The notes under the pieces are model-generated. The model was not told the origin of the DNA, made no database searches, and saw only the letters and a list, made by a program, of their open reading frames with translations. Position numbers and translations under genes: made by a program. Positions 1 to 9,034 of a stretch of DNA of 64,000 bases are shown here, in pieces (position 1 is the first letter of the stretch; each line of letters opens with the position of its first letter). The stretch is from Spirochaetia bacterium. GTDB taxonomy: Bacteria; Spirochaetota; Spirochaetia; CADAEX01. The stretch covers positions 864,001 through 928,000 of the forward strand of contig OY759746.1 of assembly GCA_963662795.1 (NCBI GenBank). The letters run 5' to 3'.

Positions 1-365
1 TTGTCTTTATACTTTTTGCTGTCAAGAAGATTTTTGTAGCTGGGTGATTTGTATGCGGCAAGAAGGCCTTCATTCTTTGCAGCGACAAAGCTGTCCATGG
101 GACCGCCCCACCATATATCAAACTGCGGATTGTCTTTTTCCGCCCTGATTCTGGCAAGAGATTCGCCGCTTGACATTCTTACATAGTTGACTGTAATGCC
201 GTATTTTTTTTCAAATTCCTGCTTCATTCCCTGACACCATTCTTCCTGCGGTGTCGCAAGTACGTTAAGCTCTGTTGTTTCCGCTTCAGCTTCTGTCTTG
301 CCCATGGCAAAAATGCCGGGTGCAAGGAAAGAAATAATGATTAAAACAAATAACACTTTTTTCAT
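1..365 (-). CDS. ABC transporter substrate-binding protein, Fe3+/AfuA/phosphonate-type (runs off the left edge of the window)
   Basis: Hand-translated from ATG 365 (AAGGAGG RBS upstream): MKKVLFVLIIISFLAPGIFAMGKTEAEAETTELNVLATPQEEWCQGMKQEFEKKYGITVNYVRMSSGESLARIRAEKDNPQFDIWWGGP. Clear paralogue of the SBP at 58089-59138. Confidence 0.85.
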   Translation of the reverse strand, partial: MKKVLFVLIIISFLAPGIFAMGKTEAEAETTELNVLATPQEEWCQGMKQEFEKKYGITVNYVRMSSGESLARIRAEKDNPQFDIWWGGPMDSFVAAKNEGLLAAYKSPSYKNLLDSKKYKD

Positions 366-478
366 ATTCAAATTCCTCCTTTAGAAATCCAAAACTGATT
401 ATAACACCTAGGTATCATTTAAGCAAATTATTTGAAGCAATTTGCCATTGTGCATATCAGAATGCTCTTCCGAGGGTT

Positions 479-1798
479 TTACAACGGCTGTTTTCCCAGA
501 ATCTTGAGAATATACTCTCCGATTGACCGGGATGTAAGACGGACTGCCTTTACAGCAGCCTCATCCGCAATTATCTTCAATTCAGATTCTTTTTTAAGGC
601 GGATATCCCCAATCATTTTTTCGATACTTTCAAGCATATCCAAGATCTTTTCAGGATCACCTGAAAGGGATTGCTTACCTGTCCCGACGGGCGCTCCTGT
701 AAATTCTCCCATAAAATTTTCACCGAACCCCTCAGGCAAACCATATCCTGACGGGGAAACGCTCTCATTTTTTTCAAGTTTTTCAGCAGTTTCAGCTGAT
801 TTTAGAAGCAGTTCAGTAATCTCATCGCCACGGTCATGCTCATCATAGCCTTCCCCGTTAACCCTTCTGGCCTCTTCCCTTAAAAGCATATAGTCTTCCG
901 CGTCAAACGAATCATTTATAAGCTGCACAATCCTCATGTCTTTGGCAAAGATATACCCGATATAAAATATTATCAGAACAAGAATGGAAATAAGGGTCAA
1001 AACAAGAACAAGCATTATTTTGTCATGCTGTCTCATAATATCTGCTCCGTCTGCGAGCACACCCTCAACCGGAAGGGATGACCCGCCGGCAGAAGCAGTC
1101 TGCTTAGTCAGATTAACCTCTATATACCAGCCGGTGCTTTCCAGTTTTTCCCTGTAACCGGCGTAATCAGTACTTTCTTTTCCGTCCCTGCCGAACAGTA
1201 CAGAGTTATCTGTATAATAAATTATTCTCGGGTCTCTTTCAGCCGTCATTCTCACCCTGTTTCTGGATAAATCATATACAGTTTCGTAATAAGCGGTTCT
1301 GTTGGTAATCAGATAATCCGTAAGCATTATGTCGACAACAGCAAGTCCCGAGACAAAAACAAGAACTATTGTTACCCCTATCTTCATCACCCTTTCCTGA
1401 ATAAAGACGGAATCGCCTTTCATCTTCTTCAGAAAGCTGAAAATACGCAAGAATCTGAGCACCCGGATTATCTTGAAAAACCTGCCTATCCGCATAACCT
1501 TGAAAAGCCCGAAATACTGGCCGAACTGCATGAAAGCGGCAAGCCCCGGTATACATGCGAGAAAATCCACCCATCCATAAGCTTTGAAAAAATATTTCTT
1601 TGATGGAAATGAAATAAGGCGCAGGGTAAAATCCAGCAGGAAAAGAAGATCAATGATCTTGTTGATTTCAGTGATGTACTCCTTAAAGGCTGTATATTCA
1701 AGGACAAGTCCTGCTATAGAGGCAATAACGATGTAGGGATTGAAAAAATCTATCAGGAAAACAAGTTTTTCAAATCTCCTGTCGGGTTTTAAATTCAT
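479..1798 (-). CDS. Voltage-sensor (Ion_trans S1-S4) membrane protein with an extracytoplasmic domain and no canonical pore loop
   Basis: S2 IDLLFLLDFTLRL, S3 GWVDFLACIP, S4 FKVMRIGRFFKIIRVLRFLR. Two further TM helices are separated by a ~100 aa hydrophilic loop with no TxGYG filter. HAMP-like RGDEITELL follows the last TM. Confidence 0.75.
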   Translation of the reverse strand: MNLKPDRRFEKLVFLIDFFNPYIVIASIAGLVLEYTAFKEYITEINKIIDLLFLLDFTLRLISFPSKKYFFKAYGWVDFLACIPGLAAFMQFGQYFGLFKVMRIGRFFKIIRVLRFLRIFSFLKKMKGDSVFIQERVMKIGVTIVLVFVSGLAVVDIMLTDYLITNRTAYYETVYDLSRNRVRMTAERDPRIIYYTDNSVLFGRDGKESTDYAGYREKLESTGWYIEVNLTKQTASAGGSSLPVEGVLADGADIMRQHDKIMLVLVLTLISILVLIIFYIGYIFAKDMRIVQLINDSFDAEDYMLLREEARRVNGEGYDEHDRGDEITELLLKSAETAEKLEKNESVSPSGYGLPEGFGENFMGEFTGAPVGTGKQSLSGDPEKILDMLESIEKMIGDIRLKKESELKIIADEAAVKAVRLTSRSIGEYILKILGKQPL

Positions 1799-1813: not shown

Positions 1814-3049
1814 TCAGAAATTATAGCGTGTCATAAACATGTCGGAAGGTTGTATAATATTTTTATTTTTTGTCAGATATTTTTTCATACTTGAAATTAT
1901 TTCCCGTGATTCAGCCTTGAAATGTGTTATTTTACCTGACGCGATATTAAAAGCGTTATTGACCAGCATATTAATACGCTCGTCTGAATCATAAAGTTTT
2001 CGGAGTTTTTCCCGCTGATTTTCCTTGATTGAAAAATACCTTCCTGATATCTCCATCACCTGCATTATCAGGATATAGGTAAAAACCGAGATAAACAGTA
2101 TGGCGCAATAAAATACCGGATGAATTCTTCCCAGGTTATCGTTTGCAAAGTTTTTAAGGCTTACAGAAAGATGCATACTTTCCAGAGTCTCAGGTTTTGC
2201 GGAATTGAGCAGCTGATAGAGTACAAAATATGAAAGGATTTCCTCATAATCACCGCCCCATCTGGATGCAATAATCTTAAGATATTCCTTAATGAAAATT
2301 GAATACCTGTCAATTTCATATCCGCACATAAGACAGTAAACTCTCGGGTTGTAAATACTCTTTGAAATTTTGCTGCCGAAAGCTTCAATCAGAAACTCTT
2401 TTTCAGGGATCTTCCTCTCATTTACCATCGCAAGTTTTTCAACCGACAGAAAACTATGTTCAATTATTTCCATTATTTTTTCAGCGTATCTGAACGGGCC
2501 CTGACCGACAATTGTGACATCGGATGAGACTATTACCTCATCAGGGTCAAGCCCTGCCGAAACCGGCCTGTCTGCGAGCCTGGAAAGGGCATCAAACCGG
2601 AGAAGGCTGTAATAAATAAATACCTCCTGATCTGTAAGCCCGATAGCCTCTGTCCTCAGTTCCTCAAGCAGTTTCTTTTCAATCTGCGGATTCATCCGCG
2701 TAAAATCCGCATTTTCAATTTTTTTATGGAATATTGATTTATTAATAAGGATTTTCTCTTCAGGAAAATAAAATTTAAGGCTTTCCCCGTCTTCAGCGCT
2801 TCCTGCGCCCCTGGTAAGGATAAGCGGGGCGGATATGTCCCTTACCGTAACTTTATTTTGAGAAGAGTTCTGCTGCAGCGCATCCTCTCCCATTTTTTTC
2901 CATTCTTTCAATATATCCGCTATTGAATCGTTTGAGAGGCCGGGGATAAGCTTCAGGAGCCCGGCAACAGCCTGCAGCGGGATTATTGATTCCGAATTAA
3001 AGAATTTAAAAAGATAAGATGCGATTGCTGCTGCATGATTTTCTGCCAT
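1814..3049 (-). CDS. Hypothetical protein, 411 aa
   Basis: Long ORF with ACAGG RBS-like sequence, 20 bp after the channel gene and 15 bp before the next gene. No recognisable motif. Confidence 0.75.
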   Translation of the reverse strand: MAENHAAAIASYLFKFFNSESIIPLQAVAGLLKLIPGLSNDSIADILKEWKKMGEDALQQNSSQNKVTVRDISAPLILTRGAGSAEDGESLKFYFPEEKILINKSIFHKKIENADFTRMNPQIEKKLLEELRTEAIGLTDQEVFIYYSLLRFDALSRLADRPVSAGLDPDEVIVSSDVTIVGQGPFRYAEKIMEIIEHSFLSVEKLAMVNERKIPEKEFLIEAFGSKISKSIYNPRVYCLMCGYEIDRYSIFIKEYLKIIASRWGGDYEEILSYFVLYQLLNSAKPETLESMHLSVSLKNFANDNLGRIHPVFYCAILFISVFTYILIMQVMEISGRYFSIKENQREKLRKLYDSDERINMLVNNAFNIASGKITHFKAESREIISSMKKYLTKNKNIIQPSDMFMTRYNF

Positions 3050-4525: not shown

Positions 4526-7500
4526 TCAGGCAATCTTATCGGGATTTTCAATCTCCCTGGCGTTGATAATAAGCATCTGAAGTCTGTTTTCGACATTTCC
4601 GATACTTGTATCCGGGTCATAGTCAAGCGCTATAATCTGGGATCCGGGACAAAGTTTTTTTAATGTCTTGATCATACCCCTGCCTGTTATATGATTGGGA
4701 AGGCATCCGAAAGGCTGCATTATTACAAATGAGTTTACGCCGGAGGCAAACATCTCCATAATCTCTCCAGGGAGTTTCCACCCTTCAGCGCCGATATATG
4801 TCACATCCATAAAAGGCTTAATATTGTCGACCAGGTTATAGATATTACCCCGGTGTTCATGAAACCGGAATTCCCTTTTTATAACACCCCAGATTTTTGT
4901 ATGAACAAAATCGTATATCCTGTCTGTGATGTCGTGAACCAGGTAATGGAAAAATGAATTGGGCGCCATTTTCCGTCTGCCGAGCTCTTTTTCTATTATC
5001 GCGGTTTTCCTGAAAAAATCGTGCATCGCCGGCTGAACAACTTCCATACCGTTAAGCTCAAGGTAGGACTCAATGTAGCAGTTTGCGGCAGGATGGTAGT
5101 TGACAAGTATTTCACCGACTATACCTACTCTGGGCTTTCTTTTGTCTGCAAATATTTCGATTCTGTTAAAATCCATTACAGCATCCCGTAAAAGACCAAG
5201 AAGCACATTTCTGCCCCTGTGGATATTTTCGCCGAGTCTTTTAATGTGCCGGTTGAATATAATGTCTGTGAGCCCCTTGTTTGTTTCGTACGGCCTTATC
5301 CTCCTGAGCATCATTTCATAGGTATCGACAATAGTCAGTCCCCAAAGCATTCTTGTCTGATCCTTTAAGGTCATTTTAAATCCCGGGTGAATCCCTTTAG
5401 TATCCTTTCCGGTTGTCACAATGGGAACTTCAGGATAGCCTGCCTCATCAAGCGCTTTCCTCGCGAGAGCCGCGTATTGGCCGGCCCTGCATGCTTCGCA
5501 GTTTTTGGCAACACCAAGGGCAAACCTTGTTTTTGCGCCCTCTGCCTTTTCAAGATAAGCCAGTGCCTCTCCTATATTTATCTGGGCGGGATAGCATATA
5601 TCGTTGTGAACATATTTTTTCCCCAGCTCTATTGCCCTTTTGTCCGCGACAGGCAGCGGCTTGATGCTGATTCCGTTTTTTCGCATAACGGAAGAAAAAA
5701 TAAGGGAAAATGCCGGGGAGAGATTCGGAGCAAGAACTATCTTTTCCTTTCTGTCCTTCTTTGTGTATATAACCTTTTTTTCACATATAAACGGGACGGC
5801 TTTCACGGAAGCGCCATCAGCATTTTCCTTCTTTCTCCTCGCCCTTATTGTCTCTATAAAAGACTTGATCCTGATGTTAAGCGGGCCGGCAGATTCACCT
5901 TCATCAAGCTTCAGGATCAGCATCTCCTTACTGCTCCGTTTCTTAAGTTCCCTGGCCATTTCATCTGAAATAATCGCGTCATGACCGCATCCGAAACTTA
6001 CAATCTGGACTATCTCAAGGTTGGGATGAAGAGCCGCTTCTATCGCAGCCCCGTCCATTCTGGTATGAAAGGTAATTGTAGTTTCCATCCTGACATCGGA
6101 AAGATCATGCTTATCAAGACCGGGGAGGGAATCGAGCGTAAGAACCGGAATGCCCAGTGATGTAAAATAGCGGGAAATGCTGTGATTAACAAGCAGATCT
6201 GAATGGTATGGCCTTCCCGCAAGCAGTACCGCGAAATTACTGCTTCCTTCAAGACCTGAAAGAACACGCGAGCCTTCTTCCCTCATTTTTGCCTTGAATA
6301 ATGCCATCGCACAGTTACCCTGCTCAATCGCATTTTTTACGGCACCCCCTTTAAGGGAAAACTCACTGGAAAACCAGGAGGTAATCTGCCTGTTCTTGAG
6401 TTTTTCATTATACCAGTGAAAAATCGGGGTATCAATTTTAATACCGGTTCTCGTAAAAAGATCGCTGCTTTTTTCAACAACCATCGGATACCCCTGAAGC
6501 ATAACGCAAGTGTGGTTTCCCTCAGCCGTGTTGTTTTCCCTCGGCAGCCGCACCATCATGGGAAGAAATATCCTGTCAACGCCTTTCGAAGCAAGCTCCT
6601 CTACATGCCCGTGAACAAGCTTTGCGGGAAAACAGGCGGTATCTGAAGGAATATACTGAAGTCCTTTCTCATAAATGTCATAGCTCGAAGGGGAGGAGAC
6701 AACTACATCAAACCCGAGGGCGGTAAAAAGCGTTCTCCAGAACGGAAGGCTGTTCCAGAATTCGAGTGTTCTCGGAATGCCGATCCTCAGCGGTCTTAAT
6801 GCATTACCCGGATCAGAAATATTTACAAGGGTACGTGATTTTCCCCTTCCTGCAGATCTGCCGCGGTAATTACTTTTTAAAAGTTCCTGTGAAAATACCC
6901 TTTTTACCGGATACTCTTTCATTAAAAGGGTGTTGTGAAGCTTAACCATGTCGGGTACGGAATCAAGCCTCTCGCGGGTATCTTTAAGTCTTTTTTTAAT
7001 GTCCGGGCTTTCCTGATTTCCGACTATCTCCCCTTTCTCGCATCTGTTTCCTGTAATGTGGTTATTGCCGTTGGTAAAAGATATTATGGTTCTGCTGCAG
7101 TGATTCGCGCAGAAACTGCAGATCATGGACGGCTGTTTAATATAATCAAGATCCTTGAGGGCCTCAAATCCCGCGAAACGGCTTAAAGGGACAGCCTGGC
7201 CGGCGGAGACGGCTTTTTCCTCCATCTGTTTCTTCACAAGGAGCGCAATTCCGAAGGCCCCCATTTCGCCCGGATACGGGGCCCTTACGACATTTCTGCC
7301 TGTATACTGTTCAAAAGCCCTTAAAACCGCGTCATTTCTGAAAGTTCCGCCCTGTACAACTATTTTTTCTCCCAGATCATTGAAGTTGGATATCCTCACT
7401 ACTTTTGTAAAGACATTTTCAATTATCGATCTGCTTATCCCGGCCAGGATATCTTCTGTTTTCTTGCCGTTTTTCTGTTCAGTGATTATTGAGCTGTTCA

Positions 7501-9034
7501 TGAAAACCGTGCATCTTGATCCAAGGTGTGACGGATTTTCCGAGAGGAAGGCAAGTTCCGCAATCCTTTCAACAGCAACACCGAGCGACTTGGCGTAGGT
7601 TTCGACAAAAGAGCCGCACCCGGCCGAGCACGCTTCGTTAAGGACAATGCCTGTAACAATCCCCTTTTTCAGGCTGATGGCTTTCATATCCTGACCGCCG
7701 ATATCAAGGATAAAAGTTACATCAGGAACAAAAAACTGAGCCGCTTCTGCATGGGCAACTGTCTCGACAGTGTGATAATCAGCAAGAAAGCCTCTTGCGA
7801 AAAGCATCTCCCCGTAACCGGTTGTTCCAAGTCCTAAAACATTAAGGGTAATCCCCCTGCTTTGGTATTTTTCATAAAGTCTTAAAAGAGCATATTTAAT
7901 TACTTTAAGCGGTTCGCCGTGGTTACCGGAATAAAAACTGTCTACCAGGCGACATTCCTTATCAATAAGAACAAATTTGGATGTTGTAGAGCCTGCGTCA
8001 AGTCCGATATAAACATCAAGAGATGCGGTACCTTCAGGAATTTCATATAATTCCCTCCCCTTTTCACTGTTATGACGGGTGAAAAAAGCTTCTTTTTCCT
8101 CATCATTCTCAAAAAAAAGCAATCCCGGGCCGGAATGCTGCGTATCCCCGTTCACTCCTTTTGTGTTCAGTTTTGATACTATACCAGAAACAGGGAGGCC
8201 TTCCCCGGCAGAGGAGAACATAAAATCTATCGAAAGCGCTGCCCCGTAGGCGACAAGAATTTCAGGTTTTTCAGGTATAACAACATCATCCTCACCAAGT
8301 GAAAGCCTTTCCTTGAAAACACTTACAAGTCTCCTGTTAAAGGTCAGCGGGCCGCCGACAAAAATGACTTTCGGCTTTATCTCCATACCCTGGGCAAGGC
8401 CGCCTATGGTCTGCTTGACTATTGCGTGAAAAGTGGAAAGGGCGATATCTTCTACTGAAACTCCGTGATTCAGAAGGGGCTGTATATCTGTTTTGGCAAA
8501 TACACCGCACCTTCCTGAAATGTCATAAACTGTTTTTCCTTTTTCGGAAAGTGCTGCAAATTCCTCTGTCCTGATTGACACCAGTTCAGCCACCTGGTCT
8601 ATAAATGCACCTGTCCCCCCTGCACAGCTTCCGTTCATCCTCATGTCGGAGGCTATAAGCTGATTTGTGTCCTCATCCATAGTAAAAAAAATAACCTTGG
8701 CATCCTGTCCGCCAAGTTCTATGGAAACCCGCACATCTTTATAGTATTTTCTTATCACAAGTGAATTGGCGACAACCTCCTGTATATAGAAAGCGTCAAG
8801 TTTTTTTGATATCGCCATCCCTCCGCTGCCGCATACCGCAATAACAAGTCTTGCATCCGGAAAGATGCGGCCGAAATCTTCAAGCATCAGGCTTAGTGTC
8901 CCGGAAAGGTCTGCATTATGCCTTCTGTAATCAGAGTAAATGAGATTATTTGTATTTGGATCTGCTATTGCGATTTTTACTGTAGTTGATCCGATATCTA
9001 TTCCGGCGTAAAGCTTATCGCTCTCTTTTTTCAT
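4526..9034 (-). CDS. 2-hydroxyacyl-CoA dehydratase activase-family multidomain protein (2x BadF/BadG/BcrA/BcrD + DUF2229 + dehydratase-like C-terminus)
   Basis: Two ASKHA activase repeats (GIDIGSTT..ELGGQDAK..MNGSCAGGTG; GLDAGSTT..DIGGQDMK..NEACSAGCG), then CFPAK, SFGCGHD, CYPA and QPFGCLPNH motifs. Confidence 0.9.
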   Translation of the reverse strand: MKKESDKLYAGIDIGSTTVKIAIADPNTNNLIYSDYRRHNADLSGTLSLMLEDFGRIFPDARLVIAVCGSGGMAISKKLDAFYIQEVVANSLVIRKYYKDVRVSIELGGQDAKVIFFTMDEDTNQLIASDMRMNGSCAGGTGAFIDQVAELVSIRTEEFAALSEKGKTVYDISGRCGVFAKTDIQPLLNHGVSVEDIALSTFHAIVKQTIGGLAQGMEIKPKVIFVGGPLTFNRRLVSVFKERLSLGEDDVVIPEKPEILVAYGAALSIDFMFSSAGEGLPVSGIVSKLNTKGVNGDTQHSGPGLLFFENDEEKEAFFTRHNSEKGRELYEIPEGTASLDVYIGLDAGSTTSKFVLIDKECRLVDSFYSGNHGEPLKVIKYALLRLYEKYQSRGITLNVLGLGTTGYGEMLFARGFLADYHTVETVAHAEAAQFFVPDVTFILDIGGQDMKAISLKKGIVTGIVLNEACSAGCGSFVETYAKSLGVAVERIAELAFLSENPSHLGSRCTVFMNSSIITEQKNGKKTEDILAGISRSIIENVFTKVVRISNFNDLGEKIVVQGGTFRNDAVLRAFEQYTGRNVVRAPYPGEMGAFGIALLVKKQMEEKAVSAGQAVPLSRFAGFEALKDLDYIKQPSMICSFCANHCSRTIISFTNGNNHITGNRCEKGEIVGNQESPDIKKRLKDTRERLDSVPDMVKLHNTLLMKEYPVKRVFSQELLKSNYRGRSAGRGKSRTLVNISDPGNALRPLRIGIPRTLEFWNSLPFWRTLFTALGFDVVVSSPSSYDIYEKGLQYIPSDTACFPAKLVHGHVEELASKGVDRIFLPMMVRLPRENNTAEGNHTCVMLQGYPMVVEKSSDLFTRTGIKIDTPIFHWYNEKLKNRQITSWFSSEFSLKGGAVKNAIEQGNCAMALFKAKMREEGSRVLSGLEGSSNFAVLLAGRPYHSDLLVNHSISRYFTSLGIPVLTLDSLPGLDKHDLSDVRMETTITFHTRMDGAAIEAALHPNLEIVQIVSFGCGHDAIISDEMARELKKRSSKEMLILKLDEGESAGPLNIRIKSFIETIRARRKKENADGASVKAVPFICEKKVIYTKKDRKEKIVLAPNLSPAFSLIFSSVMRKNGISIKPLPVADKRAIELGKKYVHNDICYPAQINIGEALAYLEKAEGAKTRFALGVAKNCEACRAGQYAALARKALDEAGYPEVPIVTTGKDTKGIHPGFKMTLKDQTRMLWGLTIVDTYEMMLRRIRPYETNKGLTDIIFNRHIKRLGENIHRGRNVLLGLLRDAVMDFNRIEIFADKRKPRVGIVGEILVNYHPAANCYIESYLELNGMEVVQPAMHDFFRKTAIIEKELGRRKMAPNSFFHYLVHDITDRIYDFVHTKIWGVIKREFRFHEHRGNIYNLVDNIKPFMDVTYIGAEGWKLPGEIMEMFASGVNSFVIMQPFGCLPNHITGRGMIKTLKKLCPGSQIIALDYDPDTSIGNVENRLQMLIINAREIENPDKIA

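Follow-up and report, generated by a model that had tools for sequence, protein, structure and literature searches.

This study concerns two adjacent genes, here called P0001 and P0002, in a 64,000-nucleotide (nt) stretch of a Spirochaetia bacterium genome (contig OY759746.1, positions 864,001 to 928,000), referred to below as the window; residue numbers are those of P0001 (439 amino acids, aa) or P0002 (411 aa) as named. P0001 is a membrane protein with a voltage-sensor domain of the ion-channel type and no canonical pore, and the main new result is that its gene has a conserved partner, P0002. Both proteins may together form a membrane-potential sensing module restricted to Spirochaetota, in which P0001 would signal through P0002, a reading to which we give about an even chance. 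The analysis shows the domain anatomy of P0001, the absence of the pore, the strength and location of the constraint along the protein and how closely both genes are coupled genetically.

Regarding the sensor, residues 23-149 of P0001 match the Pfam family PF00520 (Ion_trans; profile positions 11-134 of 241, E 1.4e-11, 44.5 bits with a cut-off of 25), covering S1-S4, the S4-S5 linker and S5, the pore half being absent. The S4 helix bears a ladder of K100, R103, R106, K109, R112, R115 and R118, and all seven positions are basic in each of the 55 family members, that is, the proteins of 357-601 aa, query included, that were collected by a word-indexed search and on which the conservation counts given here are based. 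In S2, F53 is invariant and D56 acidic in 55 of 55, D78 in S3 and R60 are likewise invariant in 55 of 55, and Ion_trans itself is matched by 47 of the members. The closest sequence match among solved structures is the Kv1.2-2.1 paddle chimera (P0001 residues 36-150, E 0.004, phmmer), and in this alignment F53/D56/R60 and D78 fall on the chimera segments WFSFEF..R and IDIVAIIP, which we take to be the Kv charge-transfer centre. The AlphaFold model of P0001, built on 55 relatives (mean predicted local distance difference test score, pLDDT, 80.1), was compared with known structures by VIA-align, where Nav, Cav, CatSper, NavAb and Ci-VSP sensors align over residues 4 to about 144 with Z 9.8-10.5, among them CatSper (9ubw_A; Z 10.5, root-mean-square deviation (rmsd) 3.3, 118 residues aligned), Nav1.7 (7xm9_A; Z 10.2) and the Ci-VSP sensor (4g7v_S; Z 10.0, rmsd 3.2, 118 aligned). 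In a second structure search, all of the best 50 matches were likewise voltage sensors on residues 4 to about 144. The intact S1-S4 that a sequence-only reading of this DNA had described, with a seven-basic S4, the Phe and Asp of S2 and the Asp of S3, is thus borne out by the Ion_trans match, the Z of about 10 to known sensors and the retention in 55 of 55 members, and S1-S4 is confirmed as a true ion-channel-type voltage-sensor domain, so that, by its sensor, P0001 belongs to the voltage-gated channel superfamily. Its S4 would move with voltage.

P0001 has no canonical pore. Hydropathy places the transmembrane (TM) helices TM5 and TM6 at about residues 138-160 and 258-283, leaving about 97 residues between them; M138, G141 and V145 of TM5 and G281 of TM6 are invariant, and F278 and Y279 nearly so. 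In the model, a helix spanning residues 131-177 extends TM5 into the periplasm and is followed by a small domain with helices at 182-188 and 212-220 and, within 192-250, six short strands; no re-entrant loop is present between TM5 and TM6. A T/SxG[YFL]G motif occurs between these helices in 0 of 55 members, and Ion_trans_2 has no Pfam match on P0001. As the rmsd exceeds 12 Å once the alignments are stretched to about residue 350, the rest of the protein is not superposable on a pore module. A complete six-TM voltage-gated channel subunit was therefore rejected, P0001 lacking both the S5-P-loop-S6 pore and the selectivity filter. The proposal that a hydrophilic extracytoplasmic domain stands in place of the pore agrees with the half-profile match, with the hydropathy of TM5 and TM6 and with the model, which was checked for an S5-P-S6 pore and contains none.

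The domain that replaces the pore loop is variable. In L033 and G045, no more than about 55 aa of it are left; in the latter (G045:C81:83252-85501), the sensor homologue matches as two pieces, profile positions 2-158 and 246-355, in a 360-aa frame, meaning that most of the periplasmic domain is absent there. No Pfam family covers this domain in P0001 or the 55 members, a profile search of PDB sequences with it matched nothing, and no conserved polar residues are found in it. The structure searches were dominated by the voltage sensor and barely probed this domain for a Cache/PDC-type fold.

The constraint is distributed accordingly along the protein, with column conservation highest in S4 (0.82), followed by the S4-S5 linker (0.80) and S3 (0.77). 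It is still 0.69 in the helix after TM6, falls to 0.34 in the periplasmic domain, which is the least conserved folded part, and reaches its lowest value, 0.14, in a disordered linker further downstream. Within the S4-S5 linker, K124, M126, K127, D129, S130, Q134 and R136 are invariant or nearly so. Such a distribution would be expected of a protein whose functional core is the electromechanical path.

On the cytoplasmic side, TM6 is followed by an acidic module, with 18 Asp and Glu against 9 Lys and Arg, in which A285, D287, L293, D296, S297, A300, L305 and E326 are invariant, and D302, Y303, D325 and E326 are retained even in a distant branch of the family, described below. The helices after TM6 run in the model to residue 300, from 304 to 315 and from 326 to 345, with about 26 residues between the first and the last in the monomer; a profile search of PDB sequences with this module returned designed helical proteins only. 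The disordered linker that comes next grows to about 200 aa in relatives, and the long C-terminal helix (consensus AxxAVKxxxxSIxxYIxKxL) is missing in L033 and P0043. Two glycine triplets, GYG at 351-353 and GFG at 357-359, lie in this linker. They are coincidental, as the sequence-only reading had allowed, because the linker is disordered (pLDDT <50) and unconserved, and any G[YF]G after TM6 is shared by only 8 of the 55 members.

The segment RGDEITELL, which is present in P0001, had also been taken for a HAMP-like element, and this claim did not survive the sequence tests. Pfam gives no HAMP (PF00672) hit on P0001 at E<=1, and the 25 families listed for the 55 members do not include HAMP, unlisted families having matched at most one member. 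In addition, a six-frame search of the genome gives 21 HAMPs, none of them in the P0001 gene, and hhalign of the P0001 module against 19 of the genome's HAMPs reaches a probability of 0.8%.

Spirochaetota also contain a sister pore-less family of about 375-395 aa (L005-L010, L038 and some 20 more loci, L038:6851-7975 being an example), which has the same arrangement of voltage sensor, TM5, a periplasmic segment about 100 aa long, and TM6, and matches only the first half of Ion_trans. Its tail, bearing the motif SPHFAxTVSDPIHVM...DDIFxLAxxYN...YLPLKDR, gives a borderline full-length, in-register HAMP match (hhalign 18.8%, E 0.0013, 44 columns), whereas the P0001 tail does not, and HAMP was rejected also with the sister tail as an intermediate, the two tails aligning with a probability of 0.09%. 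The sister family sits in a syntenic block, where it is preceded by a conserved gene for a 309-aa protein unrelated to P0002 (hhalign probability 0.27%) and followed by a DUF503 gene. The genome to which the window belongs was found to contain no member of the sister family.

Regarding the family of P0001 itself, the only Pfam family on record for the 55 members is PF00520; the source names, where given, are 'ion transporter' or 'hypothetical protein', and the proteins come from Spirochaetota metagenome-assembled genomes (MAGs). An exhaustive HMMER scan of 1.84 billion representatives gave 170 hits at E<=0.001; the 38 of them that reach E<=1e-30 are all at most 601 aa long. As no length filter was applied, any fusion to a large output domain would have shown up. 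In 12 distant or long relatives, Pfam detected neither a cyclase, kinase or MCP domain nor an output domain of another type, and the sequence-only description of a helical tail with no enzyme motif holds for P0001 and for every relative. The likeness to the N-termini of ion-channel-cyclases that it had suggested was not upheld, no relative having a cyclase, kinase or MCP domain. A truncated cyclase or pseudogene, which had been named as a possible objection, was rejected too, since the C-terminus is common to most family members and no fused relatives were found. Strong P0001 matches are present in all 3 genomes of a sister genus, and the query gave no match in two other genomes of its own genus (81% and 95% complete) or in the same taxonomic family's two further genera, from which 14 genomes were searched.

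The partner gene was recognised from gene order. Among 20 loci examined (L016-L033, L036 and L043, from 80 kept of 149 confirmed loci), 18 have a P0002 homologue directly upstream of the sensor gene on the same strand, and every neighbour other than this one varies between lineages. The exceptions are L032, where a contig end cuts the sensor gene, and L019, where a gene for an HflX-type GTPase is found upstream. The distance from partner stop to sensor start, measured for 15 pairs, lies between -32 and +24 nt. Of 301 Spirochaetota genomes sampled, 8 contain the P0002 family and 11 were matched by the sensor profile at E<=1e-15; four of the latter (G077, G101, G121 and G213) were excluded, as they match profile positions 2 to about 206 only (E 1e-16 to 1e-21) and were read as other sensor proteins. 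All of the 7 remaining sensor-bearing genomes carry P0002; in G144 (80% complete), the eighth genome with P0002, no more than a fragment is present, where a contig ends. Over 16 pairs, the identities in one family correlate with those in the other (Spearman 0.76), which reflects mainly co-inheritance and is not an independent test. The earlier idea that P0001 signals via a partner has gained support from this conserved upstream gene, whose product P0001 may bind.

The P0002 proteins differ in length, with short forms of 239-311 aa (L020, L027, L036 and L043) that align to the C-terminal part. Since these keep only that domain, it is taken to be the part working with the sensor. In a 25-sequence alignment, N210, F319, L327, K348, L352, Y353, R358 and F405 are invariant and K351 nearly so, and the basic residues K348, R358 and K351 could complement the acidic module after TM6 of P0001. 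The model of P0002 is all-alpha (pLDDT 82.6), and the protein has no signal peptide and no TM segment that is consistently hydrophobic across the family; its one strongly hydrophobic helix, 311-340, has His or Lys in distant homologues and is read as lying buried in the protein core rather than crossing the membrane. Pfam and NCBIfam place P0002 in no family, and homologue searches returned 13 and 15 proteins, all unannotated. Against the PDB, there was no usable sequence-profile match and Foldseek gave nothing at E<=0.001, while the ESM Atlas held no usable match and PADLOC no hit. In an exhaustive structure search, P0002 residues 180-403 align to PDE7A (Z 6.3, rmsd 5.6, 184 aligned), and HD-superfamily proteins make up 22 of the 50 matches listed; taking PDE7A, PDE9A, PDE8A and others together, the Z of 5.4-6.3 over 170-190 residues, at an rmsd of 5-6 Å, is under the tool's meaningful level for helical proteins. 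The resemblance to an HD/class I phosphodiesterase (PDE) fold is thus a weak lead from the models. In contrast to those enzymes, no invariant His and no HD dyad are seen in the 25-sequence alignment, and Pfam gives no hit; if the fold is HD-like, P0002 is not an active hydrolase. The homologue of G045 contains one in-frame TAA.

From these features, we infer the path that may couple S4 to P0002, and the role of the latter, as follows. P0001 would derive from a voltage-gated cation channel that kept its sensor, S4-S5 linker and two TM helices, the pore loop being replaced by the periplasmic domain. A change in membrane voltage would shift the seven-charge S4 through the intact charge-transfer centre, and the amphipathic, basic S4-S5 linker would relay this shift to TM5/TM6 and the acidic juxtamembrane helices, the acidic segment after TM6 being the putative counterpart of the S6 C-terminus that is contacted by the linker in Kv channels. 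The cytoplasmic module would then bind, release or reshape P0002 in the cytoplasm, which would pass the signal on, and the periplasmic domain may supply a second input that varies between lineages.

Several observations weigh against a voltage-sensing module of this kind. In a distant branch, made up of Treponemataceae L036 (6989-8662) and L043 (6698-8308) together with P0093, P0099, P0100 and P0126, the layout and the DSIDAxDY/EDE motifs are kept and most S4 charges are gone, R118 and one or two other basic residues remaining. L036 and L043 keep the partner gene, in a short form of 239 aa. The conserved core is therefore not strictly dependent on a strongly charged S4. In one family, moreover, the pair is unlinked: G282 and G301 have the genes on different contigs among unrelated neighbours (L019 is the sensor locus of G301). 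That both genes are nevertheless kept in these two genomes speaks for the partnership. Linkage and co-occurrence were also counted among related genomes and are non-independent observations. In addition, P0002 belongs to no recognisable enzymatic or DNA-binding family in Pfam, NCBIfam, the ESM Atlas or Foldseek.

The distant branch bears also on a different reading, in which P0001 is a receptor for a periplasmic signal, with the TM5-domain-TM6 unit sensing a ligand or envelope cue and passing it to P0002, and S1-S4 serving mainly as a structural or modulatory anchor left from a channel ancestor. The succession of TM helix, periplasmic domain, TM helix and cytoplasmic helix is indeed that of bacterial receptors, the top whole-model Foldseek match is a WalK sensor kinase model (9a5d_A, E 3.5e-3, TMq 0.24), and the distant branch holds on to the partner and the cytoplasmic motifs despite the loss of most S4 charges. 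However, the WalK match is under the Foldseek significance line, and the would-be ligand-binding part is the least conserved folded one, with no conserved polar residues and a length reduced to about 55 aa or less in L033 and G045, whereas conservation peaks in S4, in the charge-transfer centre and in the S4-S5 linker (55 of 55), which is hard to square with a passive anchor. We consider this receptor reading unlikely. Somewhat less probable again is that P0001 conducts in an unconventional way, either through an oligomeric TM5/TM6 pore with no P-loop, capped by the periplasmic domains, or through the sensor itself as in Hv1 and HCNL1, with P0002 as a regulator. A Phe plug and a full S4 charge ladder mark non-conducting sensors, and P0001 has both, in its invariant F53 and its seven charges; moreover, TM5 and TM6 are uniformly hydrophobic, no member of the family has a selectivity-filter motif, and the S5-S6 region superposes on no pore domain, with the rmsd passing 12 Å when it is included. 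For conduction speak the descent of P0001 from the voltage-gated channel superfamily and the conserved small residues G141, G151 and G281, which could pack helices in an oligomer, as well as the precedent of sensor-borne conduction in HCNL1, as described in parts of PMC7306766.

The position of the pair beside P0003, which encodes a cyclic-nucleotide-gated K+ channel, offers a further explanation, namely that P0001 is an auxiliary or regulatory subunit lending voltage dependence to that channel. The three genes follow one another on the same strand in the order P0003, P0002, P0001, separated by 20 nt between P0003 and P0002 and by 15 nt from the P0002 stop to the P0001 start, P0001 and P0003 are the only two Ion_trans genes in the 3.9-Mb genome, and the arrangement recurs in 3 sister-genus genomes. 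Yet these 4 genomes, closely related to one another, are the only ones in which the channel gene adjoins the pair, the other 14 pair loci having unrelated neighbours, and P0003 has an S1-S4 of its own, its Pfam matches being Ion_trans at 16-242 (the whole profile), Ion_trans_2 and cNMP_binding, so that we regard such a subunit role as quite improbable. Finally, the presence of the two genes in only 7-8 of the 301 sampled genomes, in variable neighbourhoods, would fit a patchy accessory module of another kind, for example one that serves in phage defence or the stress response and has its effector in the membrane. This is very improbable in our view, as PADLOC gives no hit for P0001 or P0002, no mobile-element or defence genes are found among the neighbours scanned, and the neighbours that do recur in sub-lineages encode CheY-like, CheX, Hpt kinase, FliG, PAS kinase and GAF-HD proteins.

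Taking again P0001 as a voltage sensor that signals through P0002, its relation to known systems can be described part by part. It shares with voltage-gated channels (NavAb, Nav, Cav, CatSper and Kv) the S1-S4 fold (Z 9.8-10.5, rmsd about 3 Å, about 115 residues aligned), the S4 ladder, the Phe and acid of S2, the Asp of S3, the S4-S5 linker and an S5-like helix, and differs from them in having no P-loop, filter or Pfam pore half and in carrying a folded periplasmic domain of about 97 aa instead. As in Ci-VSP/TPTE, Hv1 and SLC9C1, the sensor is coupled to something besides a canonical pore; however, those proteins are eukaryotic and have the effector in the same chain or in the sensor itself, whereas the candidate effector of P0001 is a separate protein. 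Besides this, no PTEN-like phosphatase or C2 domain is found by Pfam in P0001 or the 55 members, unlike Ci-VSP/TPTE, nor is any exchanger or other catalytic domain; two more TM helices and the periplasmic domain are present beyond the four-helix sensor of Hv1; and SLC9C1 aligns with Z 8.5 at an rmsd of 12.5 over the whole P0001 model. No Guanylate_cyc domain, as borne by the ciliate and apicomplexan channel-cyclases, is found in P0001, the 55 members or the distant relatives. With WalK-type kinases and chemoreceptors, P0001 shares a TM helix, a periplasmic alpha/beta domain, a second TM helix and juxtamembrane helices, the best Foldseek match being to WalK-YycH, while differing from two-helix bacterial receptors in having no detectable HAMP, kinase or MCP domain and in the four-helix sensor that precedes the receptor unit. 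By analogy, the non-channel sensor proteins would be the closest parallel to the way P0001 works, apart from its receptor-like unit and its separately encoded partner.

Voltage sensors coupled to non-pore outputs are rare, and to our knowledge those characterised are all eukaryotic, namely VSP, Hv1 and SLC9C1. In passages of PMC10620092, SLC9C1 is termed the only known transporter regulated by voltage-sensing domains, and parts of a 2025 review (PMC13661669) mention prokaryotes only as channels. We found no published description of the P0001 family, of the sister family or of a bacterial pore-less sensor of such a layout. The P0001 family would thus be a bacterial sensor with the full electromechanical apparatus, a receptor-like unit for a pore and, apparently, a separately encoded partner. 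It would also be a compact system for two questions, how S4 movement is turned into a biochemical signal and whether bacteria measure their own membrane potential as a signal.

Some of the neighbours of the pair suggest where such a signal could lead. In two related MAGs (L023:2975-9500 and L030:2982-9278), a single same-strand run holds genes for a receiver domain, CheX, a MASE6-Hpt-HATPase kinase, the P0002 homologue, the P0001 homologue and a FliG paralogue. At L020:2416-6982 and L027:3264-6984, the partners are short (311 and 293 aa) and their start overlaps the end of a gene for a 5TMR-LYT/PAS/HisKA_2 histidine kinase; a CheX gene lies about 5 kb downstream of the pair in L020, and a gene for a GAF-HD protein is found downstream of it in L033. 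The window genome has two FliG genes. These signalling and motility neighbours are hints and not a rule. An extension that we regard as speculative and rather improbable is that the two genes provide the control of spirochaete motility with its missing voltage input, with P0001 reading the potential along the long cell and P0002 biasing flagellar switching or chemotaxis. Goulbourne and Greenberg (1981 and 1983, cited in PMC4841586) are said to have found that clamping the membrane potential blocks chemotaxis in Spirochaeta aurantia. Were the motility reading true, it would provide a molecular candidate for that block and reopen a forty-year-old question, and P0001 would be the first voltage sensor known to act via a separate soluble partner.

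The features of the two proteins and of the neighbouring channel are placed on the window in the table below. Four successive genes occupy its minus strand here, in the order of a 1502-aa gene at 4526-9034, P0003, P0002 and P0001, and a Shine-Dalgarno-like AGGAG is found 8 nt 5' of the P0001 ATG. A consensus scan detected no terminator-like sites between P0003, P0002 and P0001, and its 23 promoter-like sites, against 19.5 expected from shuffles, are no enrichment. These three genes apparently belong to the same operon. The genome has 10 genes with class III cyclase domains, all located away from P0001.

Table. Location of the genes and of the protein segments discussed, in window coordinates.
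Feature	Position (nt)	Strand	Residues	Description
P0001 gene	479..1798	minus	439 aa	Pore-less voltage-sensor / receptor-like membrane protein; open reading frame and translation
Voltage-sensor domain S1-S4 (P0001)	1436..1765	minus	12-121	Charge-transfer centre F53, D56, D78 and R60; from Ion_trans, VIA-align and invariance
S4 helix (P0001)	1436..1507	minus	98-121	Seven basic residues at i+3
S4-S5 linker (P0001)	1388..1435	minus	122-137	LKKMKGDSVFIQERV; amphipathic, strongly conserved
TM5 (P0001)	1319..1387	minus	138-160	S5 equivalent; hydropathy peak 2.47
Periplasmic alpha/beta domain (P0001)	1028..1318	minus	161-257	In the place of the pore loop; model pLDDT about 86-93
TM6 (P0001)	950..1027	minus	258-283	Hydropathy peak 3.15
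Acidic cytoplasmic module (P0001)	764..949	minus	284-345	Motifs AKDMxIVQLIxDSxDAxDYxLL and EDEIxxLLK
Disordered variable linker (P0001)	656..751	minus	350-381	Holds GYG and GFG; pLDDT <50
C-terminal long helix (P0001)	494..655	minus	382-435	Helix in the model; moderately conserved; absent in some members
P0002 gene	1814..3049	minus	411 aa	Conserved upstream partner; all-alpha; no known family
Conserved C-terminal core (P0002)	1817..2497	minus	185-411	Sole part kept in short forms
P0003 gene	3070..4401	minus	443 aa	Cyclic-nucleotide-gated K+ channel; six TM helices, TTIGYGD filter, cyclic-nucleotide-binding domain

The 1502-aa protein has two BcrAD_BadFG ATPase regions and a DUF2229, resembling a CoA-enzyme activase fusion, and it is encoded beside the channel gene in the three sister-genus genomes too, with 65-66% identity. 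On the other side, 108 nt downstream of P0001, an open frame at window positions 3-371 (minus strand) starts with a signal sequence resembling that of a lipoprotein and is cut off by the edge of the window; read by eye, its product looks like a periplasmic solute-binding protein.

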